64,000 nucleotides of DNA from Candidatus Shapirobacteria bacterium (GCA_028700625.1 JAQVSI010000001.1:7570-71569); one strand, 5' to 3'. Counted from the stretch's first letter, positions 3,547 to 47,662 are shown. Translations and numbers: made by a program. Notes: generated by a model from the sequence alone, not told the origin.

Positions 3547-3587
3547 TCGCCCTGTCAAGGGAGATGCCCGAAGGGCAGAGGGTTTTA
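3547..3587. repeat. Double-hairpin palindromic element, copy 1 (intergenic, upstream of ZIP gene): gtcgCCCTGTCAAGGGAGatgCCCGaagGGCagaGGGTTTT
   Basis: Sequence family recurring about 10 times in the window (see findings). Confidence 0.75.
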
Positions 3588-3596
3588 ATTAAATTC

Positions 3597-4340
3597 ATGC
3601 AATCTTTATATTTATCTCTTCTAGCAGTTTTAATTGTCAGTTTAGTTTCCCTTTCTGGCATTGCTTTATTTTTTTTAAATAAAAAAACTAGTCAAAAAAT
3701 AAATCTTCTTCTTGTTAGTTTTGCCATTGGTGCTCTTTTAGGGGACACTTTTATTCATCTTTTGCCCGAAGCTTTTCAATCACTAAATTCCTTAACTGTT
3801 TCTTTTCTAACTATCGTCGGTTTATTACTTTTTTTTGTTTTGGAAAAAATTCTTCGTTGGCATCATTGTCATGAAATTAATTGTAATGAAAGTAAACATC
3901 TTATTGTTTTAAATACTGTCGGAGACACCATTCATAATCTAATTGATGGTATGCTCATTGCGGCCAGTTTTGCCGTCAATTTTAAATTGGGAATCGTTAC
4001 CAGCATTGCCGTTCTTCTTCATGAAATTCCCCAAGAAATAGGCGATTTTGCTATTTTAATTCATGGTGGATTATCAGCCAAAAAAGCTGTTTTATATAAT
4101 TTATTTACTGCCACTTCAGCTTTTTTAGGTGTCTTTTTATTTTTCTTTTTGGGCTCTAAAATTTCCTCTTTATCTCTATATTTACTTCCAATCACTGCCG
4201 GTGCTTTCATTTATTTGTCAGCCAGCGATCTAATTCCCGAGCTTCATCGCCACGATCAAAAACTTTCCCATTCTCTTTTGCAACTAATCTTTATAATTCT
4301 CGGAGTCGCTCTCATGTCCCTTTTGGCTTTTTTAGAATAA
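3597..4340 (+). CDS. ZIP family metal (Zn/Fe) transporter
   Basis: LLHEIPQEIGDFAIL signature of ZIP/ZupT; multiple TM helices; His-rich HHCHE loop. Start placed at ATG 3597 because the upstream Met lies inside the repeat element. Confidence 0.7.
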   Translation: MQSLYLSLLAVLIVSLVSLSGIALFFLNKKTSQKINLLLVSFAIGALLGDTFIHLLPEAFQSLNSLTVSFLTIVGLLLFFVLEKILRWHHCHEINCNESKHLIVLNTVGDTIHNLIDGMLIAASFAVNFKLGIVTSIAVLLHEIPQEIGDFAILIHGGLSAKKAVLYNLFTATSAFLGVFLFFFLGSKISSLSLYLLPITAGAFIYLSASDLIPELHRHDQKLSHSLLQLIFIILGVALMSLLAFLE

Positions 4341-4401
4341 GATCATTGTTTTTCTATAATTTAGGTGTATCTTACTGATACATTATAATCATTTAAATAA
4401 A

Positions 4402-4794
4402 ATGAAAGAAAGTTTTGATGTTGAAAAAAATAGAAGTAAGGATATTTCTAAAAATGAGAAATTATTAATAGATTCTGGCGTAATCGATCTATTTGAAAAT
4501 AAAATTAAATCCCAAAAGACACTAAATGGAGGGGATCTAGAAATAAAAAGAACTCACGATTTTTCAAGTGTTATTTTTAATTGGAATTTTAAAAGTACTA
4601 GGTGTGTTTTTAATAAAGGAGAAGATTGTATTATTAATACCTGTAAAACTGTAATCGCAAAAATTAAGGAAGAAGGTTTATTTATCGGTTATTTAGGACG
4701 ACATAGTTTAGAAAATTTTGAAAAAGTCGAATCAGGAAATTTAGAAGAATTAACAAATAGGGCTATAAAATTGGCAGAAAGAAATAGTTTTTAG
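4402..4794 (+). CDS. Hypothetical protein (130 aa)
   Basis: ORF only; no recognisable motif. Confidence 0.3.
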   Translation: MKESFDVEKNRSKDISKNEKLLIDSGVIDLFENKIKSQKTLNGGDLEIKRTHDFSSVIFNWNFKSTRCVFNKGEDCIINTCKTVIAKIKEEGLFIGYLGRHSLENFEKVESGNLEELTNRAIKLAERNSF

Positions 4795-4846
4795 CATTTA
4801 TCAAACAAAAAATCAGATTTGATGTCTAATTTGCTATTATTTAAAT

Positions 4847-5263
4847 ATGCAAATCAATGTTTTTACCGATGGTGGGTCTCGTGGTAATCCTGGTCACTCT
4901 GGTTATGGTCTAGTTATTTACGATGATGATAAAAAAATCTTATTTAAAGAATCAAAATATATTGGAATTAAAACCAATAACGAAGCCGAATATGCTGGTC
5001 TAATTGGTGCTCTAAATTGGATAAAAGACAACAAAGATTCTCATAAAATTTCTCAAATCAATTTTTTTGCCGATTCTCAATTGTTGGTTCGCCAAGTCCA
5101 AGGTTTATATAAAGTTAAGGCTGTTCATTTAAAACCACTTTTTACCACTGTTAAAAATTTATTAGACCAAATTAATACAACTTATTCTTTTAAAGATATT
5201 CGTCGCGAATCCAACGAATTAGCCGATGAGTTGGCCAATTGCGCCATGGATCGAAAATGTTAA
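4847..5263 (+). CDS. rnhA: Ribonuclease HI
   Basis: FTDGGSRGNPG..EAEYAGLIGAL..ADSQLLV RNase H catalytic motifs. Confidence 0.8.
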   Translation: MQINVFTDGGSRGNPGHSGYGLVIYDDDKKILFKESKYIGIKTNNEAEYAGLIGALNWIKDNKDSHKISQINFFADSQLLVRQVQGLYKVKAVHLKPLFTTVKNLLDQINTTYSFKDIRRESNELADELANCAMDRKC

Positions 5264-5266
5264 GTT

Positions 5267-6988: not shown

Positions 6989-7126
6989 ATATTATTTAGT
7001 TGTAGATTCTTTAAGTTTCAAAATTTTATCTCTCATAATCACTTCTACTTCATTTTTTGTTACGTTTTTTGGAAAATAAAAAGACTCACCAAAACAAATT
7101 TCTATTTGTTGATTTTTATAAGGTTT

Positions 7127-7746
7127 TCAGCTGTCACAACCATGTACATAAACTGGAATAAGAGGGACCGAAGATAATTCTTGCTTCAATCTTGTTTTAT
7201 AAATATGAAATATTCCAGATTGAAAAGGTAATTCTGGATTGTAATCAATATCTCCGACCACTTGTGGAAATATTAAAATAGATCTTTTATTTAGATCAAG
7301 TATTTCATTTACATCAGAAATAAAATTTCTATTTAATTTTTTCGGATTATTTCTAACTGGAATAAGGTCGTCTCCAATACTTTTATTAAAACCTTCTTTT
7401 ATTGGCAATATTATTTTTTCTTGAACATCATTCAAAATTTTATTTTTAGGATTTTTTTCATAATCAATCTGTCCTACTATTGTAATTTTTCCCCAGTCGT
7501 CTTATAAATTTGATTGAATATAAATAAATGGTCTGGTCTTGTCCCAGAATCATCGCCACCTTCTACTAGACTATTGTGATTTGAAAAAATAATATGTGGC
7601 TTATCGATAATCTCTTTAAGATTTTCAATTCCATAAGTTTTAACATTAAATTTTTCCACATAATCAGTTCTTAAATAACCCAAAATTGGGGCTAATGTTT
7701 TTTTACCAACAAAGTTGCTAACATTTTCTATTTTTTCACTAAACAT
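7127..7746 (-). pseudogene. Possible frameshifted 1-acyl-sn-glycerol-3-phosphate acyltransferase (PlsC-like) split into two ORFs (7477-7746 and 7127-7435)
   Basis: First ORF carries an NHxSxxE block resembling PlsC motif I (Asp replaced by Glu); second carries LIFPQ..LPFQSG..VPLIPVYVHG resembling motifs III/IV; the two ORFs are in different frames. Confidence 0.3.
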
Positions 7747-7753
7747 AATCGAA

Positions 7754-8779: not shown

Positions 8780-8799
8780 TATTAATGTATTATAAATGT

Positions 8800-9536: not shown

Positions 9537-10616
9537 TTAATACCTTATTTCTCTCGTATTTTCATCCAAATATTTAAACTGAATTGTCACCATTTTATTT
9601 TCTTTTTTTAGTTTCTCAAAATTTTTCTCACCCATATTTTCCGGCCACTCAATACAAGCAATATTGTTTTTGAATAATTCAAAAAATTTTATTTCTTCCA
9701 ATTCATAATCGGCACTAATTCTATACAAATCAAAATGCAAAAACTTTTTTTGTCCCCCTTTCGTCAAAGGGGGATGTCCGAAGGACAGGGGGATTTGATA
9801 TTCATTATAAATCACAAAAGTCGGACTCGTGATTTTTTCTTTTACTCCCAATAAATGTCCTATTTTACGGCTAAAAACCGTCTTACCACATCCCAAATCC
9901 CCAGTTAGGGCAAAAATAATTGGTTTATCAATATATTTTTTTAATAAAAATTCAGCAATTTTTCCTGTCTCTTTTTCCGATTTGGAAATCAATGTTTGAC
10001 TATTAGTAGTAATTAAATCACCTCGTCTTAATATTTTTAATTCCGCTTCAGTGGCATCAATTACTGTTGATGGTTTATTTCTTGGCAATTTTCCCGCATC
10101 CACAATCAAATCAATCATCTTCTTTTTCTTATTAGAAAGTGGTCTTAAAAAACTGGCGATTGAATAATTTGGAGTTCGTCCCGATAAATTTGCTGAAGTT
10201 GCTGTTATTGGTTTTTTAAATATTTTTACTAAATCGTGAATATATTTATTGTCTGGAATTCTAATTCCCAAAGTTCCATTTTCTGCTTCTATTCCGAGAG
10301 AGACCTTATGTTTTCCATTACTGACAATTGTAAAAGGGCCGGGTAATAAATTTGTATAAATATTTTGTCCATTTTCATTAAGTTCAACGTATTCCAAGGC
10401 CATTTTTTTATTAAAAACTGCGACCGAAATTGCCTTACCTGTCCATCTATTTTTAAAAGACAATAGTTTTTCTGTCGCTTTTTGGTTAGTTGGATCTACT
10501 GCCAAAATATAAACCGTATCACTTGGAAACACTACCAATCCACCATTTTTTAAAATCCTTGCGGTTTCTGATATAACTTTTTGATAATTATTTTCCTTAA
10601 TCTCCACTATTTTCAT
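9537..10616 (-). CDS. tsaC-tsaE: Fused L-threonylcarbamoyladenylate synthase (TsaC/Sua5/YrdC domain) - TsaE (YjeE P-loop ATPase) bifunctional t6A protein
   Basis: N-terminal half: VFPSDTVYIL, TSANLSGRTP (YrdC signature). C-terminal half: GDLGCGKTVF P-loop, SPTFVIYNEY, HFDLYRI (TsaE signature). Contains an in-frame repeat insertion. Confidence 0.7.
   Translation of the reverse strand: MKIVEIKENNYQKVISETARILKNGGLVVFPSDTVYILAVDPTNQKATEKLLSFKNRWTGKAISVAVFNKKMALEYVELNENGQNIYTNLLPGPFTIVSNGKHKVSLGIEAENGTLGIRIPDNKYIHDLVKIFKKPITATSANLSGRTPNYSIASFLRPLSNKKKKMIDLIVDAGKLPRNKPSTVIDATEAELKILRRGDLITTNSQTLISKSEKETGKIAEFLLKKYIDKPIIFALTGDLGCGKTVFSRKIGHLLGVKEKITSPTFVIYNEYQIPLSFGHPPLTKGGQKKFLHFDLYRISADYELEEIKFFELFKNNIACIEWPENMGEKNFEKLKKENKMVTIQFKYLDENTREIRY
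9753..9796. repeat. Palindromic element, copy 2, located in frame inside the tsaE domain (encodes ..SFGHPPLTKGGQKK.. on the minus strand)
   Basis: tccCCCTTTCGTCAAAGGGGGatgtCCGaaggaCAGGGGGATTT matches the repeat family. Confidence 0.7.
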
Positions 10617-10659
10617 GACACTATTTTATCACCTAAATACAACTTCTCCCTTTTAAAAT

Positions 10660-10708
10660 CCTCCCTGTTAAGGGAGGAAAAAAAGGTTCTTTAGGGAAGG
10701 TAGGTTTT
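10660..10708. repeat. Palindromic element, degenerate copy 3 (intergenic, upstream of valS)
   Basis: CCTCCCTGTTAAGGGAGG hairpin followed by a second hairpin region and GGTTTT. Confidence 0.5.
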
Positions 10709-10733
10709 AACTGTTTTATGCTAAAATACTCGC

Positions 10734-15790: not shown

Positions 15791-15797
15791 TTTTAGG

Positions 15798-15871
15798 TGG
15801 GTATGCATGGACTCGAACCATGGACCCCCGACTTATAAGATCGGTGCTCTAACCAACTGAGCTACATACCC
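15798..15871 (-). tRNA. tRNA-Ile (anticodon UAU), cloverleaf folded by hand; CCA not encoded
   Basis: Reverse complement GGGTATGTAGCTCAGTTGGTTAGAGCACCGATCTTATAAGTCGGGGGTCCATGGTTCGAGTCCATGCATACCC: 7-bp acceptor, D-arm, anticodon loop CTTATAA, T-loop TTCGAGT. Confidence 0.7.
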
Positions 15872-15875
15872 TAAG

Positions 15876-15949
15876 TAGCAGGAGTGGGACTCGAACCCAC
15901 GACCTCAGCGTTATGAATGCTGTGCTCTAACCGGCTGAGCTACCCTGCC
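15876..15949 (-). tRNA. tRNA with anticodon CAU (Met elongator or lysidine Ile2)
   Basis: Reverse complement GGCAGGGTAGCTCAGCCGGTTAGAGCACAGCATTCATAACGCTGAGGTCGTGGGTTCGAGTCCCACTCCTGCT; anticodon loop TTCATAA; G-U pairs at the acceptor ends. Confidence 0.65.
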
Positions 15950-15985: not shown

Positions 15986-16035
15986 CTCCCTTTCATCAAA
16001 GAGAGATGCCCCGCAACAGCGGGGAGAGGGATTTA
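15986..16035. repeat. Palindromic element, copy 4 (between tRNAs): TCTCCCTTTCATCAAAGAGAGATGCCCCGCAACAGCGGGGAGAGGGATTT
   Basis: Repeat family member. Confidence 0.65.
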
Positions 16036-16083
16036 AGACAAAAAACAAAAAAGCCGCCTAATTAAAGACAGCCCCTTTGTTTG

Positions 16084-16153
16084 TTGCGGGGCTAGGAGTT
16101 GAACCTAGCCTGTGAGATTATGAGCCTCACGTGCAGCCGTACACTACCCCGCA
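16084..16153 (-). tRNA. tRNA with anticodon CAU (70 nt, short D-arm, 4-nt variable loop; fMet or Met/Ile2)
   Basis: Reverse complement TGCGGGGTAGTGTACGGCTGCACGTGAGGCTCATAATCTCACAGGCTAGGTTCAACTCCTAGCCCCGCAA; perfect 7-bp acceptor, anticodon loop CTCATAA. Confidence 0.5.
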
Positions 16154-17500: not shown

Positions 17501-17545
17501 CCGTCCCTTTTCAAGGGAGGGTGCCCGCAGGGCGGGTGGGTTTTA
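17501..17545. repeat. Palindromic element, copy 5 (canonical): CCGTCCCTTTTCAAGGGAGGGTGCCCGCAGGGCGGGTGGGTTTTA, between convergent xerD and the ATPase gene, abutting the ATPase stop codon
   Basis: Repeat family member; double hairpin plus T-run is terminator-like. Confidence 0.75.
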
Positions 17546-19876
17546 CAATCTCGCCCTTTTTCCTATTTCCGCTTCCACCAATTCTCTTGGTCGGCCATAT
17601 TTCAATGATGATAATTTCTTAATCATCTCGGCTTTTTTAGGATCGCCTGCTTTAAGTCTTTCTGCTGCTGCCACTTTTAATGAAAATGGCTGTTTAGGAA
17701 CTCCATTAATCATAGTTTTCATATATATTTCTCCCGTTCCTAAATTCAATAGATCATGTTCTCCAAATTCTGGTTGAAATTGTTTAGCCAAAAATCCAGC
17801 ATCGGAAATACCAAGTCTAAAACTACTTATAGTACCAACGTTTCCAAACACAGCGTTTTTAACTTCATCGTCCATCTGAGAAATAAATTGATTAGCAACT
17901 GTTAAATTTAAGTGATATTTTCTGGCTTCAGATAAAATAACAGCAAAGTCTTGAGTAGCAAAATTTTGAAACTCATCCACGTATAGATAAAAATCTTTTC
18001 TCAATGCCTCTGGAGTATCTTGTCGGCTCATAGCGGCAATTAAAATCTTAGGAATCAACACTAATCCTAAAAATGCTGAATTTTCTTCTCCAATTGTTCC
18101 TTTAGCTAAATTAATTATCAAAATTTTTCCATCATCCATCGCTTGTCTAAAATTAAAAGAAGAAGTGCTTTGGCCAATAATATTTCTCATCATAGTGTTG
18201 GTAATAAAGCGTCCAAATTTAGACACTATATAATCCAAAACTTCTGATTTGTGGAAATCACTAGTTTGGGCAATTTGATCAGTCCAATAACGTCTCACCA
18301 TTGGATCAGTTAATTTTGGTAATAATTCTTGAACATAATTTTGATCAGTTAAACAACGGACTATTTCAATAAAAGTTGCCCCAGGCTCAATCATAACTGT
18401 TAACATTATATTTCTAATTGCGTGTTCAAATCGAGGTCCCACAATACCAGTTTTATATGGATCATAAAGTTTATACATCAAATTGATAATAGAACTTGTT
18501 ACAAAATCTTTTTGATCTTCTCGGTCACATTCCATCACATTAAAACCCATTGGTCTTTCTGTTTGAGATGGATCAAAATAGATAACATCATCAATTCTCT
18601 CTGGAGGAATTCTTTCCAAAATACTTTCATAAGTATCGTGTGGATCAATAAAACAAACTCCATGACCAGCCTTAATATCTTGAAGTGCCATGTCTGCTAA
18701 AAGCCAAGATTTACCCACACCAGTTTGTCCCACAATATAAAAATGTCGTTGCCTATCATTTGTTGTCATACAAAATTTTTTATTAACTCCGCGATACAGA
18801 TTGTCACCAACATAAAGTCCCTCTTGAGGGGAATCAGTTGGAGCCGGTGCTTTTTTGGCCTTTAACCAATAAATATTTGGAGTTTCAATCGATTTATTTG
18901 GAAAATGGAAGATGCCAGCAATTTCATCTGAAGATAAAACAGTCTTATTTTTAATCCACATTAACACAGGATATTTATAGATGAAATCAGCCATAAACAT
19001 CGATTTGACCATTATTTTTTTGCTAGTAAGCTTATTCCAGGGCGATTCAAATTGGCCAAAACATGCCTTAATATTGGAAATATTCATCTTAGCTATTTCT
19101 TTGCTTGGTGCCACTGCTAGAATTCTTATCACCACTTCAAAACTAGGTTTACTACTTTTTTGTTCAATTGCTTCCAATTGTTTAGCATCGATTTTGTAAG
19201 AAGCCTTTTCGGAATTAGATTCTGATTTTTTAGTACTACTAATAAAACCTCGACCCATTTTTGCCCACTTACCTTCAGTCGGTGATAAAACTAGTTGGAT
19301 TGAAATTGTTTCATTTTCGTTTAATTTAGACAAAGTTGAAGTTACTGCAGCTAAAGGATCAACCGAAATTTCTTTGTAGTTTTTTAAAGGATAATAGGGG
19401 ATTTTTTTTAAAGCCAACCATAAGTATTCTACTTTACCATCGTTAGTATAGATATTTGGTTCTTCAACCACCTTAACATCAGCTCCAGCATAAACACTGT
19501 AAATTTGTTTTTCGATTAAATCTTGATATTTTTCTGGAATTGAAATATAGAACTTAATATCATCATGAGTTCCAATAATTTCCAAAGATACACTTGGTTG
19601 AGAAATTAATGGTTGCAAAAATTTTAATTTTGCCGATTTATGTAGGCTGGAAATTGAATTAATTATTTGTTCACTAGCATCAATTTTTATCTCATTATCT
19701 TGTGGCACTGCTATCAATAAAGTTATCAACTTTAAAGACTTTTCTTCTCTATCTCTCCACTTCCACCACATTAAAACTGCCAAACTTAAAAATCCTAAAA
19801 GCAAGACAATTAATACTATTATTAGTAGTGACATCAAAAACGCAGTTATTTGTTCAACTATCAAACTTTGATTCAT
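17543..19876 (-). CDS. Membrane-anchored FtsK/TraG/VirD4-superfamily P-loop DNA-translocase-like ATPase (777 aa) with ~400 aa non-canonical N-terminal domain
   Basis: Single N-terminal TM; Walker A GQTGVGKS; Walker B LYVDEFQ; LTVANQFISQMDDEVKNAVFGNVGTISSFRLG matches the post-Walker-B Q..SQL..G....FR block of coupling proteins and FtsK. Confidence 0.5.
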   Translation of the reverse strand: MNQSLIVEQITAFLMSLLIIVLIVLLLGFLSLAVLMWWKWRDREEKSLKLITLLIAVPQDNEIKIDASEQIINSISSLHKSAKLKFLQPLISQPSVSLEIIGTHDDIKFYISIPEKYQDLIEKQIYSVYAGADVKVVEEPNIYTNDGKVEYLWLALKKIPYYPLKNYKEISVDPLAAVTSTLSKLNENETISIQLVLSPTEGKWAKMGRGFISSTKKSESNSEKASYKIDAKQLEAIEQKSSKPSFEVVIRILAVAPSKEIAKMNISNIKACFGQFESPWNKLTSKKIMVKSMFMADFIYKYPVLMWIKNKTVLSSDEIAGIFHFPNKSIETPNIYWLKAKKAPAPTDSPQEGLYVGDNLYRGVNKKFCMTTNDRQRHFYIVGQTGVGKSWLLADMALQDIKAGHGVCFIDPHDTYESILERIPPERIDDVIYFDPSQTERPMGFNVMECDREDQKDFVTSSIINLMYKLYDPYKTGIVGPRFEHAIRNIMLTVMIEPGATFIEIVRCLTDQNYVQELLPKLTDPMVRRYWTDQIAQTSDFHKSEVLDYIVSKFGRFITNTMMRNIIGQSTSSFNFRQAMDDGKILIINLAKGTIGEENSAFLGLVLIPKILIAAMSRQDTPEALRKDFYLYVDEFQNFATQDFAVILSEARKYHLNLTVANQFISQMDDEVKNAVFGNVGTISSFRLGISDAGFLAKQFQPEFGEHDLLNLGTGEIYMKTMINGVPKQPFSLKVAAAERLKAGDPKKAEMIKKLSSLKYGRPRELVEAEIGKRARL

Positions 19877-22558: not shown

Positions 22559-22605
22559 AGCCCTCTTTGTCAAGGGAGGGTGCCCGCAGAGTGGGTGGGT
22601 TTAAG
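22559..22605. repeat. Palindromic element, copy 6 (canonical), immediately upstream of dnaG, overlapping its annotated N-terminus
   Basis: GCCCTCTTTGTCAAGGGAGGGTGCCCGCAGAGTGGGTGGGTTTAAGG. Confidence 0.75.
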
Positions 22606-24413: not shown

Positions 24414-24453
24414 TCCCATCCTTTTGTCAAAGGAGGGGTTAGGGGTAGATTTT
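24414..24453. repeat. Palindromic element, variant copy 7, in dnaG-rpoD spacer
   Basis: CCCATCCTTTTGTCAAAGGAGGGGTTAGGGGTAGATTTTA. Confidence 0.55.
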
Positions 24454-24481
24454 AAAAGAATTTTCCTATACAATATACCGC

Positions 24482-31562: not shown

Positions 31563-33026
31563 CTATCCTATTGCTACTATTTGTCTTAATTTAGGCAAAA
31601 ATATAGATGTATATTCAGCAAAGTCTTCTTTTTGAATTTCTCTTGATCCTGTCTCTCTAGCTGGTTCTCGTCCATGACCTAAAATAAAATTTTCTAATGA
31701 ATTTAAGTTAAATCTTTTGTAAAAATCGATTAATTCATGTCCACTAGCATGGCTACTATTACCATCAGCCCAAATTACTTCTGCAGTTTTTCTTTCTACT
31801 TTTCCATTTTCAATTTCTTTTATCATTTCTGCACCTCTAGTTCCTGGAACTTGAAAACAAGTAAGAATAAATGAATTATTAGGGTTTTGATTAAATTTAC
31901 CGCTTCTATAATTAACCGATCTCCCTCTAGTTACCATTCCACCACTAGCAAATACAATTGCTTTTTCTGAAGAATAAGCTAGATGTTCAACTAATAGTTT
32001 TGACTGTTCATGTGACTCAACTATAGTCAGATTTTTTATATTAAATCGACTCATACTATTTTCCTTAGTTTTATAAAAGCATGGATCATCACCATACCAA
32101 TTACTCATATAATCTGGACCTAAATCTTGATGAACTTTTAATACTTTTCTTGGCAACGGTGCATCCATGTAAAAATGATAATCAAGAAATTGACCCCTAC
32201 ATTCTTGATCATTGTGAAATATTTCCATTGTTGGTGCCAATCTGCCAGCTATAAGTGGCATCACCGAAACTCCACCTCTTTGTGCAGTTTTTGTTACTGC
32301 ATTAAATATATTAATCTCTCTTTCACTAAAAGAAACTGGATCTTTTTCGAAACAAGTTGATTCGGTTAATATCGTGTGAATTCTGCAGTCAGGGTATTTA
32401 CTGGAATATTCATTATAACCACCGCATGTCAATTGATTTGGTCTACCAATATCACCAGTAAATAAGGTATTTTTTTTAGTAACACCATCTTTAATTAATA
32501 CTGACACACTTCCGTTCATGTGGCCGTTTGGTATTAAAATAGCTGTTATTTTACCGTGACGACTTCCAATATCAATTTCTTCAAATGCTTCAATTATTTT
32601 CACTCGTTTTAAAATATCATTAACATCTTTCCTATTATAAAGTGGTTTTTTTTCCTTATCGCTTTCTTGAATTTTTACAGAGTCTTCCAACATTATTTTT
32701 GAAAGTTAAAATGTTTCTCTTGTAGTATAAACATTTGGAGTAAAACCATATTTAGCAATTAATGGAAATAATCCAATGTGATCAATATGGGCGTGAGTCA
32801 TAAAAAAATCTGATGTCCCTCGACAAATTTCACTTATATATTCAAGGTCTCTTAGTCTTCCTTTTTCAGATATTTCTTCAAATTTTCCTTGAAATTTCCC
32901 ATAATCAATTCCGATTTTATTATCTCCACGCTCGTAAATATGGCATGATCCAGTTACTAACCCTCCACTTCCGCCAAAAGATTCAACTGTGACATTATTT
33001 CTTTCGCAAGATTCTATTCTTTTCAT
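31563..33026 (-). pseudogene. Metallo-beta-lactamase-fold beta-CASP nuclease (RNase J/CPSF-like) interrupted by a single in-frame TAA (32706-32708); the two ORFs (32706-33026 and 31563-32693) are in the same frame
   Basis: N-terminal part carries THAHIDHIG (HxHxDH); downstream part carries TESTCF and HASGH beta-CASP motifs; only 4 codons including the stop separate them. Confidence 0.55.
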
Positions 33027-39528: not shown

Positions 39529-40722
39529 ATGATTTCACAACCGTTAGCTTCATTACTTCGTCCTAAAAATTTAGAAGATTTTGTCGGTCAAACTCATCTG
39601 GTTGGTCCTCAAAAACCGCTTCGTTTGGCAATCGAAAACCACCAAGTTTTTTCCATGATTTTTTGGGGTCCTCCTGGAGTTGGTAAAACCACATTAGCTC
39701 GAATTTTAGCCAGTGAAGCCGAGGCTACTATTCACGAGTTATCGGCAGTTTCTGCCAGTAAAGATGATATTAAAAAAATTATTGCCGCTTATCGTCCTAT
39801 GGAAAAGAATATTCTTTTTCTAGATGAAATTCATCGTTTTAATAAAGCTCAACAAGATTTTCTACTTCCCTCAGTTGAATCGGGAAAATTAATTTTAATC
39901 GGTGCCACCACTGAAAATCCCAGCTTTGAGGTCATTTCTCCACTTCTTTCTCGTTGTCGAGTTTTTGTTTTAAAAGAATTATCCGACGATGAAATGAGTC
40001 AAATCATCGATAAGGCAGTTCAAAAATTAGCTCCCCTGTCAAGGGGGGGTGGTCGTAAGACCGGAGGGGTTTTAATCAAAAAAGACGCCAAAGATTGGAT
40101 TATTCAAATGGCCAATGGTGATGCTCGTCAATGTATTACCATCATGGATAACGCTTTTACTCTTTATGGCGATTTAAAACTAGAAAGTTTAAAACAAGCC
40201 CTTCAAAATTCTTTTCTCCGTTTCGACAAAAAAGGTGAGGAGCATTACAATACCATTTCCGCTTTTATTAAATCCATGCGCGCCAGTAATGTCGACGCCT
40301 CTCTTTATTATTTAGCCCGAATGATTACTGCTGGTGAAGATCCAAAATTTATTGCCCGTCGTATGGTTGTTTTTGCTAGTGAAGATATTGGCATTGCCAA
40401 TTCTTCAGCCCTGATGTTGGCCAATAATGTTTTCGATGCAGTTATGAAAATTGGCTATCCAGAATGTCGTGAAAATTTAGCCCATGGCGTGGTTTATTTA
40501 GCAAAATCACCTAAAGATAGGTCAGCTTATGAAGCCTATTTATCTGCTCTTAAAGACGTTGAGATTCATGGTAATTTACCAATACCGCTTAATCTCCGCA
40601 ACCCCGAAACCAAATTAATGGAAGACATTGGCTATGGTAAAGGTTACGAAAAATATACCAAAGAGTCTCTTTTACCAAATAAAATTAAAGATAAAAAATA
40701 TTTTATTGAAAAGAAAAAATAA
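39529..40722 (+). CDS. rarA: Replication-associated recombination protein A (RarA/MgsA AAA+ ATPase), carrying an in-frame repeat insertion
   Basis: FWGPPGVGKTTLARILA Walker A, LFLDEIHRFNKAQQD, NGDARQ sensor region. Confidence 0.8.
   Translation: MISQPLASLLRPKNLEDFVGQTHLVGPQKPLRLAIENHQVFSMIFWGPPGVGKTTLARILASEAEATIHELSAVSASKDDIKKIIAAYRPMEKNILFLDEIHRFNKAQQDFLLPSVESGKLILIGATTENPSFEVISPLLSRCRVFVLKELSDDEMSQIIDKAVQKLAPLSRGGGRKTGGVLIKKDAKDWIIQMANGDARQCITIMDNAFTLYGDLKLESLKQALQNSFLRFDKKGEEHYNTISAFIKSMRASNVDASLYYLARMITAGEDPKFIARRMVVFASEDIGIANSSALMLANNVFDAVMKIGYPECRENLAHGVVYLAKSPKDRSAYEAYLSALKDVEIHGNLPIPLNLRNPETKLMEDIGYGKGYEKYTKESLLPNKIKDKKYFIEKKK
40029..40074. repeat. Palindromic element, copy 8, in frame within rarA (encodes ..APLSRGGGRKTGGVLI..)
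   Basis: AGCTCCCCTGTCAAGGGGGGGTGGTCGTAAGACCGGAGGGGTTTTA. Confidence 0.7.
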
Positions 40723-41021: not shown

Positions 41022-43139
41022 ATGTTTTCTTTACTAATCACTTTTCTATTATTTTTTATAGTTACAGTTCAACCTGTTAACGCTCAATTATTAGAAGAAT
41101 CCACTTCCAGCGCTCAAATTATCCCCACTGAAATTCCAATAACCGAAATCACACCAATCCCAACCGATATCGCTTCAACCTTAACAGAAAATATTTTAAT
41201 CCCCACCGAAACACCAACATTAACCCCAACTTTAATTCCAACTCCAACTCCAACTCCAACTCCAACTCCAAAAGTTATTGAAAGTGAATCCATAAAATTT
41301 CCCCAAATCACCACCGACAAGGCTGATTATTCTCCAACCGATATTGCTATTATTTCTGGTAATAATTTTTTATCAAATACTCAATACATTTTAAATATCA
41401 CTTCAGACAATTTAAATGTTAATTATCAAATTAATTCCGACGAATCCGGTTCTTTTATTTATAATTATCAACTCGATGGTATTTATCGACCAAATTATAA
41501 AGTTGAAGCCAGAGATTTAAACAACAATATTATTTCCTTCATCACTTTTACCGACAAAAGAAGTGTCCTTTCGGCCACTGTTAATGGACAAAATTCAATC
41601 AATGTTTTTTCCAGAGATTCAATTACTGTCGGAGTAAGTGTTAACACAGATTGGTGGTGGTTTTGGAACAATGATTGGAGATCAACTTCCTGGAGGTTTG
41701 GTAATTCTGGAGAGTGGAATTGTGTTGACACTCCAAACCATCTTAAATCAGGCGATTATTCAGAATTTTTTCAAATAAATGCTCCCATAAATCCCAAAAA
41801 ATATCAATTACAAATCAGAATTCATGGTTTAGAAAATTGTGGAATTTTATTTAAAAGTGATATTTTTACTCTAAAAGATGCTATAACAGTTTCTCTTCCC
41901 GACACCACTCCTCCAATTATTACCATCGATTTATACAACACAAATTTAACCAATCAAGATATTATTGTCTCAGCTTCTACCAATGAAGGCACTTTAAATT
42001 TTACTTCTCACACTTTTGAATCAAATGATTCTTTTACTTTTATTGCCACTGATAGTGTTGGTAACATTGCTACTGAAATTATAACTATCAATAATATCGA
42101 TAAAACCCCACCAACTCTTTTAAACAAAACCGAATTTGGAAACAGTTGGTACAACACCGATCAACTTTCAGTTTTTAATTTTACCGATGAAAATGGCGTT
42201 ATTTCTGGTAATAATCCAACTTGCCAAATTTTCAGCGAAGGTTCTTTTCAAACTTGTTCTGTTGGTTTAAATGTTTGTGATACCGCTGGTAATTGCAATA
42301 CTGATTTAATTTTTTCCAATAGTGCCAACATCGACAAAACTAAACCAATTTTGGGTTTTTCCATAACTCCATCTTCTTCTAATGCCGATAATAATTGGTA
42401 TAGAACTCAGCCAGAAATAAATTTAACTAATATTGAAAATAACCCTTTTATTTTCCAATACAAATGGGATTCTGAAAATAGTTGGACTAATTATAATTTT
42501 TGTTTAAGACCTTCTTTTGAAGGTTCACATACTCTTTATTTCCAATCTCAAGATTTGGCTGGTAATCAGACAAGTTCTCTTATTGAAATTAAATGGGACC
42601 AAACTGAACCATCTATTGCCCCTCAAAACATAAGTGCCAATCCAAACAACACTAGTAATAGTGTTTCTACTATCAAATGGGACCAAGCCATCGACAATAT
42701 TGGCATTGATAAATATGAAATTAAATGGACTTTAAATAACCCTAATAATCCATTTTCTTATTCTAAAACAGTTGGGTTTGATGTTAGAGAAACTGAAATT
42801 GATAAATTAATTGAAGGTCGTTGGACTGTTCAGGTTTTTGCTATCGATCCAAGTGGTTTAAAAAAAGACAATGCTATCGATTTATTTATTATTAAAAATA
42901 GCGAAATTATTTTTAATGATGTTCCTGTAAAAACAGTCTTGGCTCAAAAAAAATTATTAACAGAAATTAAAGATACTGATAATCAAATTATTCCGATTCT
43001 AACTTCATTTCCAACTGTTTTAGGCACTTCAACCACTAAAAAGAAATTTAATTTAAAATGGTTTCTTTTAGTTACAATTATGGTTCTTTTATATATCAGC
43101 ATCCGCAAGTACAACAATAAATCAAAAAAAATAATATAG
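41022..43139 (+). CDS. Large cell-surface protein (705 aa): signal peptide, Pro/Thr-rich linker, beta-rich repeats, C-terminal TM plus basic tail
   Basis: Architecture read from translation; (PT)n linker; C-terminal WFLLVTIMVLLYISIRKYNNKSKKII anchor. Confidence 0.45.
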   Translation: MFSLLITFLLFFIVTVQPVNAQLLEESTSSAQIIPTEIPITEITPIPTDIASTLTENILIPTETPTLTPTLIPTPTPTPTPTPKVIESESIKFPQITTDKADYSPTDIAIISGNNFLSNTQYILNITSDNLNVNYQINSDESGSFIYNYQLDGIYRPNYKVEARDLNNNIISFITFTDKRSVLSATVNGQNSINVFSRDSITVGVSVNTDWWWFWNNDWRSTSWRFGNSGEWNCVDTPNHLKSGDYSEFFQINAPINPKKYQLQIRIHGLENCGILFKSDIFTLKDAITVSLPDTTPPIITIDLYNTNLTNQDIIVSASTNEGTLNFTSHTFESNDSFTFIATDSVGNIATEIITINNIDKTPPTLLNKTEFGNSWYNTDQLSVFNFTDENGVISGNNPTCQIFSEGSFQTCSVGLNVCDTAGNCNTDLIFSNSANIDKTKPILGFSITPSSSNADNNWYRTQPEINLTNIENNPFIFQYKWDSENSWTNYNFCLRPSFEGSHTLYFQSQDLAGNQTSSLIEIKWDQTEPSIAPQNISANPNNTSNSVSTIKWDQAIDNIGIDKYEIKWTLNNPNNPFSYSKTVGFDVRETEIDKLIEGRWTVQVFAIDPSGLKKDNAIDLFIIKNSEIIFNDVPVKTVLAQKKLLTEIKDTDNQIIPILTSFPTVLGTSTTKKKFNLKWFLLVTIMVLLYISIRKYNNKSKKII
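41236..41266 (+). repeat. Hexanucleotide (CCAACT)n microsatellite encoding the PTPTPT linker
   Basis: About 5 perfect tandem hexamers. Confidence 0.6.
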
Positions 43140-43192
43140 CCCTCCTTGTCAAGGGAGGGTGGTCCCGCTGCTGCGGGACCGGGTGGGTTTTA
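43139..43192. repeat. Palindromic element, long copy 9, between convergent genes, ending at the helicase stop codon
   Basis: GCCCTCCTTGTCAAGGGAGGGTGGTCCCGCTGCTGCGGGACCGGGTGGGTTTTA. Confidence 0.75.
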
Positions 43193-44512: not shown

Positions 44513-44580
44513 AATATAAATGCACCAATTGCTTAAATCAGTCTGTAGTCTATCACAATCAACTCTAATTGCAAGCTTCT

Positions 44581-45858
44581 TTAAAGTTTACTTGCCACTA
44601 ATTGCCACAACATTACCAACATTGCCATTGTCATAAAAAATAGAGTTACTAAAGCGGCAAATCTATGTTTTTTCTTAGTTTTAAATTTACCAACAACTCT
44701 TTCATCATCAGACACTTTAATAATAATTGCAATCAACGGCACTGACGCTAAACCATTAATTATGGCTGCATAATATAAAGCATTCATCACATTAATCCCT
44801 AATAAATTTATTAAAAAACCAATTCCCGTTGCTACGGCAATAATTATGTAAAATACTTTAGCTTGGCTAAATTTTTTAGATAATCCTTCTTTAAATCCAA
44901 AAGTCTCAGATAAAGCATATGCCAAAGATCCAGCCAAAACTGGGATTGATTGCCATCCAATTCCAATTATTCCGACTGCAAATAGGATATAAGCAAAATT
45001 TCCAACTAATGGTTTTAAAGCCATTGCTGCTTGTTGTGGAGTATCTATTGAAAATATTCCGTTTGCATGTAAAGTTGCTGCTGTTGTTAACATAATTGCC
45101 AAAGCTATTAAATTAGAAAAAGCCATTCCTATTTTAGTGTCAAATTCCATTAATTTAACTTCATGTCTAGTAGTTACTGGATGAGAATTAAAATCTTTAA
45201 TTTCTCCAGTTGCGATTTGCTCTTCAACTTCTTGTGCACTTTGCCAAAAAAACAGATAAGGTGAAATGGTTGTTCCGACTAACCCAATAATAATCATTAA
45301 ATATTCCAAATTTATTTCTACCTGAGGAACAAAAGTATCCCAAACCAAATCGCTAAGATCATGTTTAACTAAAAATGCTGTTATTAAATAAACTATCAAA
45401 ACTAAACCAAGCCATTGTAAATATTTTATATATTTTCGATAAGGAATAGCAATTTGCATCCACACTATAAAAATAGCGGCCACTGCTAGCCAATAATAAT
45501 AATTAAAATCAAAAAGCATTTGCATTGATGCCGCCATTATTCCTAAATCTGCTCCAATATTAATTATATTAGCGATGGCCAAAAGTGAAGTAGCTAAAAC
45601 CAACATTCTTTTTGAATAATATTTTTTAATAATACTTGCCAACCCCTTACCACTTACCATTCCTATTCGACCACACATTTCTTGGATAGAAACCATCGCC
45701 GGCCATAAAAACAACATCATCCAATTCAATTTATATCCAAATTTTGCTCCCACCATCGAATAAGTAGCAATTCCAGAAGGATCATCGTCGGCTGCTCCAG
45801 TCACAAAACCAGGTCCAGTTTTTTTAAAAAAATCTTTAACCTTTTTTAATATCATCAC
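44581..45858 (-). CDS. Nramp family divalent metal transporter
   Basis: GPGFVTGAADDDPSGIATYSMVGAKFGYKLNWMML matches Nramp TM1 signature; ~11 TMs. Confidence 0.65.
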   Translation of the reverse strand: MMILKKVKDFFKKTGPGFVTGAADDDPSGIATYSMVGAKFGYKLNWMMLFLWPAMVSIQEMCGRIGMVSGKGLASIIKKYYSKRMLVLATSLLAIANIINIGADLGIMAASMQMLFDFNYYYWLAVAAIFIVWMQIAIPYRKYIKYLQWLGLVLIVYLITAFLVKHDLSDLVWDTFVPQVEINLEYLMIIIGLVGTTISPYLFFWQSAQEVEEQIATGEIKDFNSHPVTTRHEVKLMEFDTKIGMAFSNLIALAIMLTTAATLHANGIFSIDTPQQAAMALKPLVGNFAYILFAVGIIGIGWQSIPVLAGSLAYALSETFGFKEGLSKKFSQAKVFYIIIAVATGIGFLINLLGINVMNALYYAAIINGLASVPLIAIIIKVSDDERVVGKFKTKKKHRFAALVTLFFMTMAMLVMLWQLVASKL

Positions 45859-45931
45859 ATTAAAGATATCTGTTTTTTTTAATTAAATCTAGCCCTAAGA
45901 AAATTCAATAATTCTGTAGTAAAATGAAGCC

Positions 45932-47662
45932 ATGACGTCAAACTTTTCCACTATAAAAATTGCTGGTCCTGCTGGTTCTGGCATTAAATCTGCCGGTCAA
46001 CTTTTTTCCAAATTTTTAATTGATCATAGTTTTAATTTGGTCGATTATAGTGAATATCCATCTCTGGTTCGTGGTGGTCACAATACTTATCAAATTACTT
46101 TTTCCGACGAAAAAGTTTTTTCCACTCATTTTAATGTGGATCTATTTTTTTCTGTCTATCCAAATCATTGGCAACAACACTTAGAAGAATTTACTAAAGA
46201 TACTTTAATTTTTTCTGATGAGGATTTCTCTAAAGTCAAAACTAAAGCTAAGTTTTTACGTCTGCCTTTAAAAGATATGGCCACTGAAGTTGGTAGTCTT
46301 TTAGTTGTTAATACACTTTGTCTAGGAGTAGCTGCTTATCTTTATGATTTAGATACTACTCTCATTAAAGATCTTATTTGTGAAACTTACGGTAAACACG
46401 GTGACTTAAACTGTAATGCTTTTAATATTGCTTATCAATATGCATTTAAAAACTTTTTTAAGTTTCAAATTAAAATAAAAAAACCAAGCAAAAAGATAAA
46501 AATGGGTTTTTATGACGGTAACGAAGCTTTTGGTTGGGGATTTATCAAGGGTGGTGGCATTTTTTATTCCGCTTATCCAATGACTCCAGCCACCGGTGCT
46601 CTCCATTTTTTGGCTGCCAAACAAACAGAATATAAATTAACAGTAATCCATCCAGAAGATGAAATTTCTTCAGCTAACATGGCTGCTGGTGCTGCTTTCA
46701 CTGGGGCTCGTAGTGCCACAGGCACTTCAGGTGGTGGTTTTGCTCTCATGAATGAAGCTATCAGTTTCTGTGGAATTACTGAAATTGGTATGGTTTATTA
46801 TTTAGTATCAAGACCAGGTCCAGCCACTGGCCTTCCAACGTGGACAAGTCAAGGAGATCTTCTTCATGCTATCTATTCTGGTCATGGTGAATTTCCCAAA
46901 GTTGTTCTTGCTCCAGGAGATCTCGATGAATCTTTTGAATTAAGCCATACTGCTCTTGATCTAGCTGCTCATCTCCAAACTCCAATAATAGTTTTAAGCG
47001 ATAAATTAATCGGTGAATCAAGTGGTAGTACTAATTATTTCCCAGAAATGGAAGTAAAAATTGATAAGGGTGAAATTCTAAATGAAATTGAAGATGAAGA
47101 TTATAAAAGATATGCTTTCACTAAAAACGGCATTTCTCCACTTTCTCTTCCAGGCACTCCAAATGGTGAATTTTTATCCAACAGCTATGAACATGACGAA
47201 TATGGTTTTGCCACAGAAGATGCTAATCTTTCAGAAAAAATGTCTAAAAAGAGAATGTTAAAAAATAAAGTTGCTTTAACTATTTGTCCAAAAGCTAATT
47301 TTTTTGGATCTAAAAAAGCCAAAAAATTAATTATTGCCTGGGGTTCTCCCAAAGGAGCTATTCTTGAAGCCTTAAAATTAATAGAAAATAAAGAAGATTT
47401 TGCTTTTTTACAATTAAAAACTCTCTGGCCAATTAATCCTGAAATTAAAACTATTATTAATGCTTTTAAAGAAATTATTGTTATAGAAAACAATGGTACT
47501 AGCCAACTAGTTACTCTTCTTAAATCTCAATTCGATTTTAATCCAACTAGAATAATCAATAAAAACAATGGCCGTCCTTTCTTTCCAGAAGAAATCATTA
47601 AATTATTAAAAAGTTATCCTGTCAAAGGAAATGCACGCAGGGCAGAGGGTTTAAAACTATGA
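45932..47662 (+). CDS. 2-oxoacid:ferredoxin oxidoreductase alpha subunit (fused gamma-alpha, KorA-like); C-terminal residues encoded by a repeat copy
   Basis: N-terminal gamma-like IKIAGPAGSGIKSAGQLF; alpha domain GNEAFGWGFIKGGGIFYSAYPMTPAT. Confidence 0.7.
   Translation: MTSNFSTIKIAGPAGSGIKSAGQLFSKFLIDHSFNLVDYSEYPSLVRGGHNTYQITFSDEKVFSTHFNVDLFFSVYPNHWQQHLEEFTKDTLIFSDEDFSKVKTKAKFLRLPLKDMATEVGSLLVVNTLCLGVAAYLYDLDTTLIKDLICETYGKHGDLNCNAFNIAYQYAFKNFFKFQIKIKKPSKKIKMGFYDGNEAFGWGFIKGGGIFYSAYPMTPATGALHFLAAKQTEYKLTVIHPEDEISSANMAAGAAFTGARSATGTSGGGFALMNEAISFCGITEIGMVYYLVSRPGPATGLPTWTSQGDLLHAIYSGHGEFPKVVLAPGDLDESFELSHTALDLAAHLQTPIIVLSDKLIGESSGSTNYFPEMEVKIDKGEILNEIEDEDYKRYAFTKNGISPLSLPGTPNGEFLSNSYEHDEYGFATEDANLSEKMSKKRMLKNKVALTICPKANFFGSKKAKKLIIAWGSPKGAILEALKLIENKEDFAFLQLKTLWPINPEIKTIINAFKEIIVIENNGTSQLVTLLKSQFDFNPTRIINKNNGRPFFPEEIIKLLKSYPVKGNARRAEGLKL
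47617..47656. repeat. Palindromic element, copy 10, forming the last ~13 codons of the oxidoreductase alpha subunit (..PVKGNARRAEGLKL*)
   Basis: TCCTGTCAAAGGAAATGCACGCAGGGCAGAGGGTTTAAAA. Confidence 0.65.

Follow-up and report, generated by a model that had tools for sequence, protein, structure and literature searches.

Dispersed GC-rich repeats of a Candidatus Shapirobacteria genome with the sequence features of a class II purine-motif intrastrand DNA triplex

The closest described counterparts of the repeats analysed here are the BoxC/PIT/TMECO elements, a little-studied class of repeat in E. coli and further Proteobacteria (Hoyne & Maher 2000, 2002, cited in Holder et al. 2015, PMC4666352). 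A class II triplex motif consists of a pyrimidine domain (Y), then a purine domain (R), then a reverse-Hoogsteen domain, the last running antiparallel to the purine arm with G.G-C, A.A-T and T.A-T triads (PMC4666352). [quoted passage not shown] In RNA, the purine motif reportedly yields no triplex; the ITxF search admits stems of 6–15 nt containing no more than one mismatch, and its loops span 1–6 nt (PMC4666352). For the PIT elements of E. coli, the available text describes no function in the reported assays and neither terminator nor promoter activity (PMC4666352). The G-rich/C-rich repeats of Methanomicrobiaceae are also comparable, with similar repeats noted in Deinococcus, and related E. 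coli and archaeal repeats interconvert between G-quadruplex and triplex in vitro, according to the available part of that report (PMC8044849).

Here, we analysed a window of 64,000 nt from the genome of an uncultured, ultra-small Candidatus Shapirobacteria bacterium (CPR), in which a GC-rich element of about 37–54 nt stands out from DNA of ~31% GC. The first-pass annotation had proposed ~10 dispersed copies, and all ten of its sites carry the element, giving a density of ~1 copy per 6 kb (10 in 64 kb). A covariance model (R1), seeded with 36 copies from the window and related genomes and scanned with filters off, recovers exactly these ten sites in the window with E-values of 3e-18 to 6e-3, including those at 10660 and 24414, which are both absent from the seed. 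All ten matches lie on the + strand; the next-best match, at 14 bits, is the palindromic hairpin 1 of the copy at 10660 on the opposite strand. Within the window, the exact canonical 45-mer occurs once, at 17501, and a degenerate 18-nt core gives 6 matches where 0.55 are expected.

At its 5′ end, the element has a pyrimidine arm, which a conserved (T)GTCA(A) loop connects to its Watson-Crick partner, the purine arm; a linker, a third segment mirroring the purine arm, and TTTWA follow in the 3′ direction. Arms measure 6–9 nt and the first loop 4–6 nt. The linker is of two kinds, either ~3 nt (TTA/TTT, the short form) or TG followed by a GC mini-hairpin, ‘hairpin 2’ (the long form). The Y arm is complementary to the following R arm, as in a class II motif, with helix 1 being 92.7% paired and 6/8 pairs showing changes on both sides. 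Taken over both hairpins, pairing holds in 86.9% of cells and double-sided changes are seen in 52, compared with 15.9 in shuffles (0/500 shuffles reach 52), and every covariation measure drops when the 3′ partner is slid. These compensatory changes bear out the earlier proposal that structure rather than sequence is conserved in the stems; the (T)GTCA(A) loop is the most conserved part of the element. The accompanying claim that each copy has both hairpins needs correcting: the copy at 24414 lacks hairpin 2, and in the copy at 10660 it is degenerate. DNA folding gives z-scores of −2.2 to −5.2, and a tail of 12–17 nt stays unpaired in Watson-Crick folding with ViennaRNA, which does not model triplexes.

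This tail, previously described as GGGTTTT, in fact mirrors the hairpin 1 purine arm: it consists of 6–9 nt of G/A/T, then TTT, with G opposite G and A or T opposite A. We reduced 61 elements to 48 distinct arm/tail types and permuted the tails 20000 times. The mirror match is 93.1%, against 79.1% (sd 1.3) with permuted tails, a level reached in 0/20000 permutations, and the 33 asymmetric arms behave likewise (92.1% versus 78.5% permuted; 0/20000). A direct-repeat model for the tail was also tried and gave a poorer fit (83.3% versus 80.2%). In the triad table, an R-arm G faces G in 178/195 cases and an R-arm A faces A (51) or T (57) in 108/116, and the rule spans 27 distinct arm sequences, for example AGAGGGG>GGGGAGA, AGGGAGA>AGAGGGA and GGGGGAG>GAGGGGG. 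Linkers measure 2–3 nt in 11 types and 10–21 nt in 25, and a single outlier reaches 36 nt; hairpin 2 is thus optional, being replaced by TTA or TTT in short forms, and a double hairpin with a tail no longer serves as the defining architecture. Because the 3′ G-rich segment mirrors the purine arm and hairpin 2 is dispensable, we regard the element as an intrastrand-triplex repeat, which by its sequence is a predicted class II purine-motif intrastrand DNA triplex.

The purine arm and tail together could also be read as four G-runs forming a G-quadruplex that competes with hairpin 1, a switch for which the canonical copies (GGGAGGG...GGGTGGG), the four G3 tracts of 24–30 of the 61 copies (~40–50% could form a G-quadruplex) and the in vitro interconversion of related repeats described in the available part of PMC8044849 would speak. 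A three-tetrad G-quadruplex is, however, impossible in half of the copies, such as GGGAGA/AGAGGG and AGAGGGA/AGGGAGA, and all copies obey the mirror/triad rule including its A and T positions, none of which a G-quadruplex needs, making this switch very unlikely.

Like BoxC/PIT/TMECO, the Shapirobacteria element has a C-rich arm, a loop, a G-rich arm, a short loop and a G-rich third strand that mirrors the preceding arm, each A being matched by T or A; its short form shares the second loop TTA with TMECO type A. Both are GC-rich, dispersed and multi-copy with occasional close inverted pairs (here on the related contigs L015, L020 and L023), vary in presence between relatives and have no associated transposase, which for the Shapirobacteria element applies to the window ORFs scanned. 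The TMECO consensus itself has 0 matches in the window. TMECO arms are 9 nt, compared with about 6–8 nt in Shapirobacteria copies, and are near-identical with varying loops in E. coli, whereas here loop 1 is conserved and the arms covary. The short-form second loop (2–3 nt) lies within the ITxF limit; the GC mini-hairpin in loop 2, which sets the long form apart from TMECO, extends that loop to 10–21 nt, beyond the 1–6 nt limit, so that an ITxF search would presumably miss the long form. In E. coli, the elements are always intergenic, show no strand bias (13+/10−) and number 23 per ~4.6-Mb genome (PMC4666352), in contrast to the in-frame genic copies, strong polarity and density of ~1 per 6 kb, given as ~100 times higher, in this CPR bacterium. 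New relative to the E. coli triplex repeats are the nested hairpin, the conserved GTCA loop with covarying arms and the density, as well as the in-frame placement of copies within tsaE, rarA and a POR gene, the strand polarity and the spread across CPR lineages. The Methanomicrobiaceae repeats are likewise dispersed and GC-rich, with a C3TC3-type pyrimidine arm, a possible hairpin plus antiparallel G-rich third strand and a possible G-quadruplex, but in them the G-rich part comes first, on the 5′ side of the C-rich tract (class I-like), and they are intergenic only; the available part of their description mentions neither a nested hairpin nor strand polarity (PMC8044849).

From these sequence comparisons, the copies are probably high-copy short GC-rich repeats of the BoxC/PIT/TMECO kind, whose G-rich strand would fold as a class II purine-motif intrastrand triplex. 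The folded structure would act as single-stranded DNA rather than RNA, since RNA reportedly does not form purine-motif triplexes and the orientation of the copies ignores gene direction. The copies may be non-autonomous and largely selfish or neutral, having multiplied in some CPR lineages and surviving only where tolerated, in tiny spacers and permissive protein loops.

The positions of the copies bear this indifference to gene direction out. The long form at 3547..3587 (+; 56.3 bits, mirror 6/6) has the Y arm TCGCCC, loop TGTCAA, R arm GGGAGA, linker TG with hairpin 2 GCCC-GAA-GGGC, third strand AGAGGG and TTTTA, and lies between a divergent SBP gene (1963..3483, −) and a ZIP transporter gene. 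The copy at 10660..10708 (+; 31 bits, outside the model seed), with its degenerate hairpin 2, occupies the 117-bp spacer between tsaCE (−) and valS (+), and the long form at 15986..16035 (+; 38 bits) lies between two tRNA-Met genes, both on the − strand. The canonical long form at 17501..17545 (+; 54.3 bits) fills the spacer where a xerC/D-like recombinase gene (+) converges with a HerA/DUF87-like ATPase gene (−), the TTTTA end of the copy supplying the stop codon (17543–17545) of the ATPase gene. Another canonical long form, at 22559..22603 (+; 57.7 bits), separates a polyprenyl synthase gene from dnaG and is identical in the strain-level contig L031; between dnaG and rpoD lies the short form at 24414..24454 (+; 15.9 bits, outside the model seed), with linker TTA and without hairpin 2. 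The long form at 43139..43192 (+; 59.8 bits), whose hairpin 2 has 8 bp, is the exact spacer of two convergent genes, from the stop TAG at 43137–43139 to TTA (reverse complement TAA) at 43190–43192. To judge by the translations, overlaps of the copies at 3547 and 22559 with ORFs look like upstream extensions of mechanically listed ORFs.

GC-rich hairpins followed by a T-run, with several copies exactly at gene ends or between convergent genes, would suit an RNA-level element, be it an intrinsic terminator, an mRNA 3′-end stabiliser or a regulatory hairpin. We consider this barely probable. Orientation is independent of transcription, as the copy at 9753 is antisense in tsaE and that at 15986 antisense to the tRNA genes, those at 3547 and 10660 lie between divergent genes, and genic copies in relatives are sense or antisense. 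The G-rich third strand also places 6–9 nt between the last hairpin and the T-run, which departs from an intrinsic terminator, and no Rfam family matches the element. A purine-motif triplex moreover reportedly does not form in RNA, and the available text on PIT reports no terminator or promoter activity (PMC4666352).

Instead of gene direction, element orientation tracks the chromosome strand. In 57/61 elements, and in 14/15 loci with uniform orientation, it is the locally C-rich strand that carries the G-rich strand of the element. Measured at third codon positions in the window, GC skew is −0.28 in + strand genes and −0.27 in − strand genes, and such similar values indicate that skew follows the strand rather than transcription. 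In the triplex-repeat reading that we prefer, the one-strand orientation would arise at the replication fork: the triplex-prone G-rich strand lies on the strand with C-rich third codon positions, by the usual skew convention the leading-strand template, which suggests that copies folding on the lagging-strand template, where the single-stranded state is long-lived, either never insert or soon undergo deletion. We infer the leading/lagging assignment from that GC-skew convention, and it is in mild conflict with the 64% of window coding length that lies on the C-rich strand. As TMECO has no strand bias, fork-based selection would not be general for this kind of element.

Coding sequence holds three of the ten copies, in agreement with the earlier placement of copies both in spacers and in three CDSs, and some are translated as part of essential genes. 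The long form at 9753..9797 (+; 54.7 bits) is antisense within the tsaC(Sua5)-tsaE fusion gene (9537..10616, −), where its in-frame reading extends the TsaE domain by PLSFGHPPLTKGG; about two dozen out of 120 homologues have no insert in this loop. The long form at 40029..40074 (+; 53.6 bits) is sense within a rarA/mgsA-type AAA ATPase gene (39529..40722, +) and adds about APLSRGGGRKTGGV in frame, at a site empty in most rarA homologues. The decayed long form at 47617..47653 (+; 39 bits) provides the C-terminal codons ...YPVKGNARRAEGLKL* at the end of a POR-type oxidoreductase gene (45932..47662). Rickettsia palindromic elements (RPEs) are short repeats of a small AT-rich genome that likewise sit in frame in protein genes and are translated; they are simple palindromes of about 100–150 bp without a triplex third strand. 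The suggested RPE-type organisation agrees in the placement of copies in spacers and in frame within genes, but we take the element for a triplex repeat of 40–55 nt (about 37–54 nt over the window copies) and not for an RPE; in-frame insertion is the only shared trait, as compared by description rather than by sequence. Fungal mitochondrial GC clusters and double-hairpin elements are also GC-rich hairpins in an AT-rich genome, sometimes within coding regions; to our knowledge, no mirrored third strand has been described for these organellar elements, which are set apart by description.

In-frame genic copies, together with presence that differs between relatives, would also be expected of a double-hairpin mobile element of RPE, REP or MITE type, the hairpins being recognised by a transposase in trans and the G-rich tail being incidental. 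The covariation of both hairpins agrees with this, the highly conserved (T)GTCA(A) loop suggests protein recognition, and co-orientation on one replication strand is typical of single-strand transposition, as in IS200/IS605 and REP/RAYT. We nevertheless consider such an element unlikely. Many copies have no hairpin 2, no hairpin model explains the mirror rule of the tail, and the size of 40–55 nt departs from the 100–150 nt of RPEs. A Pfam scan of the 20 least obvious window ORFs found no Y1, HUH or DDE transposase domain; the sole recombinase in the window is the xerC/D-like gene, which is also present in a copy-poor relative (L001). No marks of mobility emerged at the loci compared: alignments of filled and empty tsaE, tsaD and SBP/TIM sites, at 80–85% divergence, show AT-rich flanks without clear target-site duplication or terminal inverted repeats, strain-level contigs show no presence/absence polymorphism, and the relatives' loci and window ORFs scanned yielded no empty-site junction or mobilising enzyme. 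No phage copies were found. REP/REPIN sequences are similar in being short GC-rich hairpin repeats at gene ends that conserve structure over sequence and probably act as single-stranded DNA. They differ, in the available parts of their descriptions, in having a GTAG or CGTC tag, an extragenic position and a RAYT gene alongside (PMC3733652, PMC3337134), whereas the Shapirobacteria flank tables show no GTAG or CGTC tag, only a weakly T/A-rich upstream flank and TTTWA downstream, and copies also occur in coding sequence.

The family extends to other CPR lineages, and its unpaired loop is conserved across Shapirobacteria, Peribacteria and Absconditabacterales. Orthologous sites differ in presence or absence of a copy among relatives (tsaD, SBP/TIM, tsaE and rarA), as the first-pass annotation had led us to look for; at the tsaD and SBP/TIM sites, for example, L003 has a copy and the window has none. 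Copies orthologous to that at 10660 lie upstream of valS in L003 (9316) and, as a short form, in L001 (9350). Coding-sequence copies in relatives can be sense or antisense, depending on the gene. Density is very uneven: L007 carries 8 copies in 8 kb and L003 carries 8 in 21 kb, but the 42 kb of L039 and L040 combined have none. Such unevenness, which within one genome amounts to 8 copies in 8 kb versus 0 in 21 kb, speaks against a host-functional, strand-polar DNA signal kept by selection for replication, repair or segregation (candidates being fork pausing, priming, recombination or KOPS/Chi-like polarity), as do the copy-free syntenic region of L040, the only two weak copies of that region in L001, and the disruption of protein loops by copies. 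KOPS and Chi are leading-strand motifs, opposite to a G-rich motif on the C-rich strand. E. coli PIT elements, in the available text, had no function in reported assays (PMC4666352). A host signal is thus rather doubtful, despite the very strong polarity, the loop conserved across CPR classes and the three-way covariation, which points to selection on the fold. Retention at identical sites also speaks for it: one copy is kept at the same site in proteins only 35% identical and another in the same spacer between ORFs 45–60% identical, the triplex arms being kept and the hairpin-2 stems altered with compensation. Same-site retention across such deep divergence is more readily explained by selection or repeated homing than by neutral persistence, and in this it counts against the largely selfish or neutral reading that we prefer.

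A GC-rich island of 37–54 nt is present at each of the ten coordinates at which the first-pass annotation had placed a dispersed palindromic element (3547, 9753, 10660, 15986, 17501, 22559, 24414, 40029, 43139 and 47617; copies are named by start), in a window of ~31% GC whose GC skew is negative over its entire length and whose proteins identify a Candidatus Shapirobacteria genome (Microgenomates, Candidate Phyla Radiation, CPR). The exact canonical 45-mer occurs once in the window, while a degenerate 18-nt core occurs six times versus 0.55 expected. We built a covariance model (R1) on an alignment of 36 copies from the window and related genomes (A2). Here 86.9% of cells are paired, two-sided changes occur in 52 cells versus 15.9 in shuffles (0/500), and sliding the 3' partners lowers every pairing measure, bearing out the proposal that structure is conserved over sequence. 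Searching the window with R1, filters off, returned exactly the ten sites, all on the forward strand and two of them absent from the seed, with no other credible match, confirming a dispersed ten-copy family. Rfam, run on the whole window at gathering thresholds and on copy 43139 at E ≤ 10, gave just tRNAs and sub-threshold chance matches, so the elements match no Rfam family.

In every copy, the G-rich segment past hairpin 2, previously described as a GGGTTTT tail, is the mirror of the hairpin-1 purine arm, and neither its complement nor its direct repeat. Thus the purine arm GGGAGA of copy 3547 is followed by the third strand AGAGGG, and the canonical GGGAGGG by GGGTGGG; in loci of related genomes (L003:3044 being the element at position 3044 of L003), AGAGGGG is matched by GGGGAGA (L003:3044 and L003:10818), AGGGAGA by AGAGGGA (L003:7300), AGAGGGA by AGGGAGA (L019:2492), GGGGGAG by GAGGGGG (L020:245, L023:6918) and GGGAGGA by AGGTGGG (L028). 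Over 61 elements with 48 distinct arm/tail types, the mirror model gave a positional match of 93.1%, compared to 79.1% (sd 1.3) when tails were permuted among elements (0/20000 permutations as high); among the 33 asymmetric arms, the match was 92.1% versus 78.5% (0/20000). A direct-repeat model of the tail fitted worse (83.3% versus 80.2% permuted), and a hand check of Watson-Crick pairing between tail and 5' arm failed for asymmetric arms. G-quadruplex formation was also rejected as a general fold, with just 24–30 of the 61 copies qualifying.

Position by position, a purine-arm G faces G in 178/195 cases and a purine-arm A faces A (51) or T (57) in 108/116, a rule valid over 27 different arm sequences, and Watson-Crick folding leaves the third-strand segment unpaired. 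Three segments of the element therefore co-vary by the purine-motif code, in addition to the two Watson-Crick helices. The predicted contacts (G.G-C, A.A-T and T.A-T, the third strand running antiparallel to the purine arm) are the exact code of a purine-motif triplex, and a pyrimidine arm followed by a purine arm and then a third strand corresponds to 'class II' of a published classification (PMC4666352). This three-way covariation argues that the triplex itself, and not merely a hairpin, may be under selection. On one reading, the joint change of the three segments, seen in 27 or more arm variants and in several CPR lineages, would amount to comparative evidence for in-cell selection of an intramolecular DNA triplex, using covariation of the kind normally employed to prove RNA structures.

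Two hairpins had been assigned to every copy; both covary in A2, but copies can do without hairpin 2. In related loci the model search recovered many short forms that have TTA, TTT or CTA alone between purine arm and mirror (L003:3044, 7300 and 10818; L009:3744; L012:2462; L015:4527; L017:4921; L019:2492), and window copy 24414 is of the same form. Linker lengths fall into two classes, 2–3 nt (11 types) and 10–21 nt (25 types), with a single outlier of 36 nt. The long-form linker consists of TG followed by a GC mini-hairpin whose stems vary freely among copies with compensatory changes; because a stem-loop joins its ends like a 3-nt turn, the long form can be understood as the same triplex motif, its second loop carrying a nested hairpin. 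C-GNA-G triloops, present in 10/40 distinct predicted hairpins 3' of the purine arm, some of which are spurious, are suggestive at most as a signature of stable DNA mini-hairpins. With a mirrored third strand and an optional hairpin 2, the elements are not double hairpins of the Rickettsia-palindromic-element type, as the first-pass annotation had proposed, but, judged from their sequences, a CPR family of putative intrastrand-triplex repeats.

Intrastrand triplex repeats (BoxC/PIT/TMECO) have been on record since the 1990s, and to our knowledge they have no assigned function and there is no evidence for their triplex in cells. In E. coli they have the form CCCTCNCCC-N3-6-GGGNGAGGG-N3-GGGNGAGGG, the second loop being TTA or CCG, and thousands of occurrences are reported in Proteobacteria (PMC4666352). 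The isolated TMECO single strand forms a very stable triplex by CD and NMR (Tm 70–82 °C), whereas none was detected in vivo, and the repeat is reported to show no promoter or terminator activity (PMC4666352). It is always intergenic, without strand bias (13+/10−), sometimes in close inverted pairs and linked to local instability (PMC4666352). Similar G-rich/C-rich repeats are described for Methanomicrobiaceae and Deinococcus (PMC8044849). The CPR elements share with TMECO the architecture, the TTA loop and inverted pairs, although the TMECO consensus has no match in the window. Their close tail-to-tail or head-to-head pairs (L020:245–336, L023:6875–6958 and L015:4423–4570) recall the paired type A/type B arrangement of E. 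coli. Unlike in TMECO, conservation peaks in loop 1, (T)GTCA(A), and the arms differ between copies and covary; being nearly identical to one another, E. coli copies carry no covariation signal, whereas the CPR family is diverse and its three segments change together. In the literature searched, no paper mentions triplexes together with the Candidate Phyla Radiation.

Scanning a single genome of each species for the pattern, we detected true copies in several Shapirobacteria MAGs, Peribacteria, Absconditabacterales and one further Patescibacteria MAG. MAGs labelled Gammaproteobacteria also scored; however, L015 is syntenic with the Shapirobacteria locus L010, and L026 with L007, so the labels of L015 and L026 are probably wrong and we do not regard Gammaproteobacteria as hosts. 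The MAGs of L011, L012, L015, L026 and L028 were deposited as 'uncultured Gammaproteobacteria'; they have a GC content of 27–42%, contain canonical copies and are GTDB species representatives. Carriage by phages was likewise rejected, since the full pattern had no match on phage contigs and four matches of the hairpin-1 core were all chance. Density is high but patchy, with 10 copies in the 64 kb of the window, 8 in 8 kb of L007 and 8 in 21 kb of L003; a separate 21-kb region of the L007 genome has no copies, and neither does the syntenic 21-kb stretch from a more distant relative.

All ten window copies lie on the forward strand irrespective of neighbouring gene direction: divergent genes flank two of them and convergent genes another two, one runs antisense within a gene and one is antisense to tRNA genes. 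More generally, the G-rich strand of the element lies on the locally C-rich strand in 57/61 elements and in 14/15 uniformly oriented loci (two-sided sign test over loci, ~0.001), and three of the four exceptions belong to the inverted pairs of L015, L020 and L023. Third-codon GC skew in the window is −0.28 for forward-strand genes and −0.27 for reverse-strand genes, indicating that the skew is a property of the strand, i.e. of replication, and not an effect of transcription. At L007, one strand has the rnpA-yidD-yidC-jag cluster, the genes and the positive skew, with the elements on the opposite strand, which fits the usual convention of a G-rich leading strand. L039 (709–730 kb of a 735-kb contig) has no elements and the same sign of skew in contig orientation.

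Because RNA is reported not to form triplexes of the purine motif (PMC4666352), and because orientation ignores transcription, we infer that the fold would act as single-stranded DNA. The polarity may arise at the replication fork, where by the usual skew convention the triplex-prone strand would be the leading-strand template. The reverse orientation would expose this strand on the single-stranded lagging-strand template, where polymerase arrest and deletion could follow; triplexes of this type can arrest polymerases (PMC4666352). Biased insertion via a single-stranded intermediate, rather than a fork effect, would be an equally possible source of the polarity.

The first-pass annotation had allowed for a mobile element, and orthologous loci do differ in occupancy: L003 has a copy at the tsaD site and another at the SBP/TIM spacer site, both of which are empty in the window, and L001 likewise lacks the one in tsaD. 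Three filled/empty sites (tsaE, tsaD and SBP/TIM), aligned for target-site duplication, were ambiguous at 80–85% identity. Among the 20 least obvious window ORFs we found no transposase domain, and the sole recombinase gene is xerC/D-like; L001, a relative that has just two weak copies in the region, carries this gene too. At strain level (contigs L029–L032, 99.4–99.9% identity), no copy was gained, lost or changed. In relatives, an HD-domain gene lies between valS and tsaCE (L001:9398–9988, L003:9398–9988 and L037:9372–10004); it is absent from the window, where its site is a 117-bp spacer (10617–10733) with copy 10660; conversely, a ZIP gene (3564..4340) and an ORF (4402..4794) are in the window and not in L003. 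Also, L031 and the window are 99.4% identical over 8 kb, with 47/52 differences in 320 bp of a HerA/DUF87-like ATPase gene (18383–18703), a pattern resembling a recombination tract.

Some copies are very old: the window, L003 and L001 share the one upstream of valS; L010 and L015 have a copy between the same two ORFs at 45–60% protein identity; and L007 and L026 have one at the same position of a protein just 35% identical (peptides EIKPTHSAIAELPSLEKGGL and DLNPPVTAVAVTPSLDKEGK), with identical triplex arms and completely different hairpin-2 stems. Most copies may be selfish or neutral passengers, persisting where tolerated. Retention of some copies over deep divergence, together with the conservation of the loop, leaves room for a host-functional or protein-recognised role. 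We consider it rather unlikely that the elements are host-relevant, strand-polar single-stranded-DNA signals at the CPR replication fork, not junk, kept at the same sites over deep divergence, with the triplex selected in living cells.

As the first-pass annotation stated, copies lie inside three coding sequences, and they are read through in frame: copy 9753, antisense in tsaE, adds PLSFGHPPLTKGG; copy 40029, sense in rarA, adds about APLSRGGGRKTGGV; and copy 47617 forms the C-terminus of a POR-type oxidoreductase subunit. L003 has copies within tsaD, the 3' end of valS and a small ORF. The tsaC (Sua5/YrdC)-tsaE fusion gene (9537–10616, reverse strand; Pfam PF01300 and PF02367) is common to all 120 homologues listed, and the window protein is 100% identical to that of a Shapirobacteria MAG. 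Its element site is empty in about two dozen of the 120, most others having long, short or double versions that differ from one another, whereas the rarA site is filled in ~30 of 120 homologues and empty in most. The same tsaE loop holds unrelated inserts in other lineages, namely a tandem heptamer (GATCGTC/GATCGTA, four units; L038:1205–2338) and an AT-rich insert (L037:10001–11095). The loop is hypervariable in general, which weakens the idea of hot-spot targeting, and the tsaE and rarA sites are probably permissive loops, not specific targets. The elements cause indels in conserved CPR proteins, and they probably break metagenomic assemblies. Strict polarity, very high density in a ~1 Mb genome and translated copies in the essential genes tsaE, tsaD, valS and rarA make the role and spread of triplex repeats directly testable.

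At gene ends, a TAG stop (43137–43139) lies immediately 5' of copy 43139, and the TTTTA ends of copies 17501 (17541–17545) and 43139 (43188–43192) read TAA for converging reverse-strand genes; since flanking stops abut or are formed by these two elements, the element is the whole intergenic spacer. Copy 15986 lies between two tRNA-Met(CAT) genes (15875–15949 and 16083–16153), which are adjoined by a tRNA-Ile gene with anticodon TAT (15796–15871, reverse strand), an anticodon unusual for bacteria. Elsewhere in the window, a beta-CASP/metallo-beta-lactamase (RNase J-like) gene at 31563–33026 (reverse strand) appears split into 32706..33026 (MBL N-terminus) and 31563..32693 (beta-CASP and RMMBL), which may reflect a frameshift, pseudogene formation or a programmed event.
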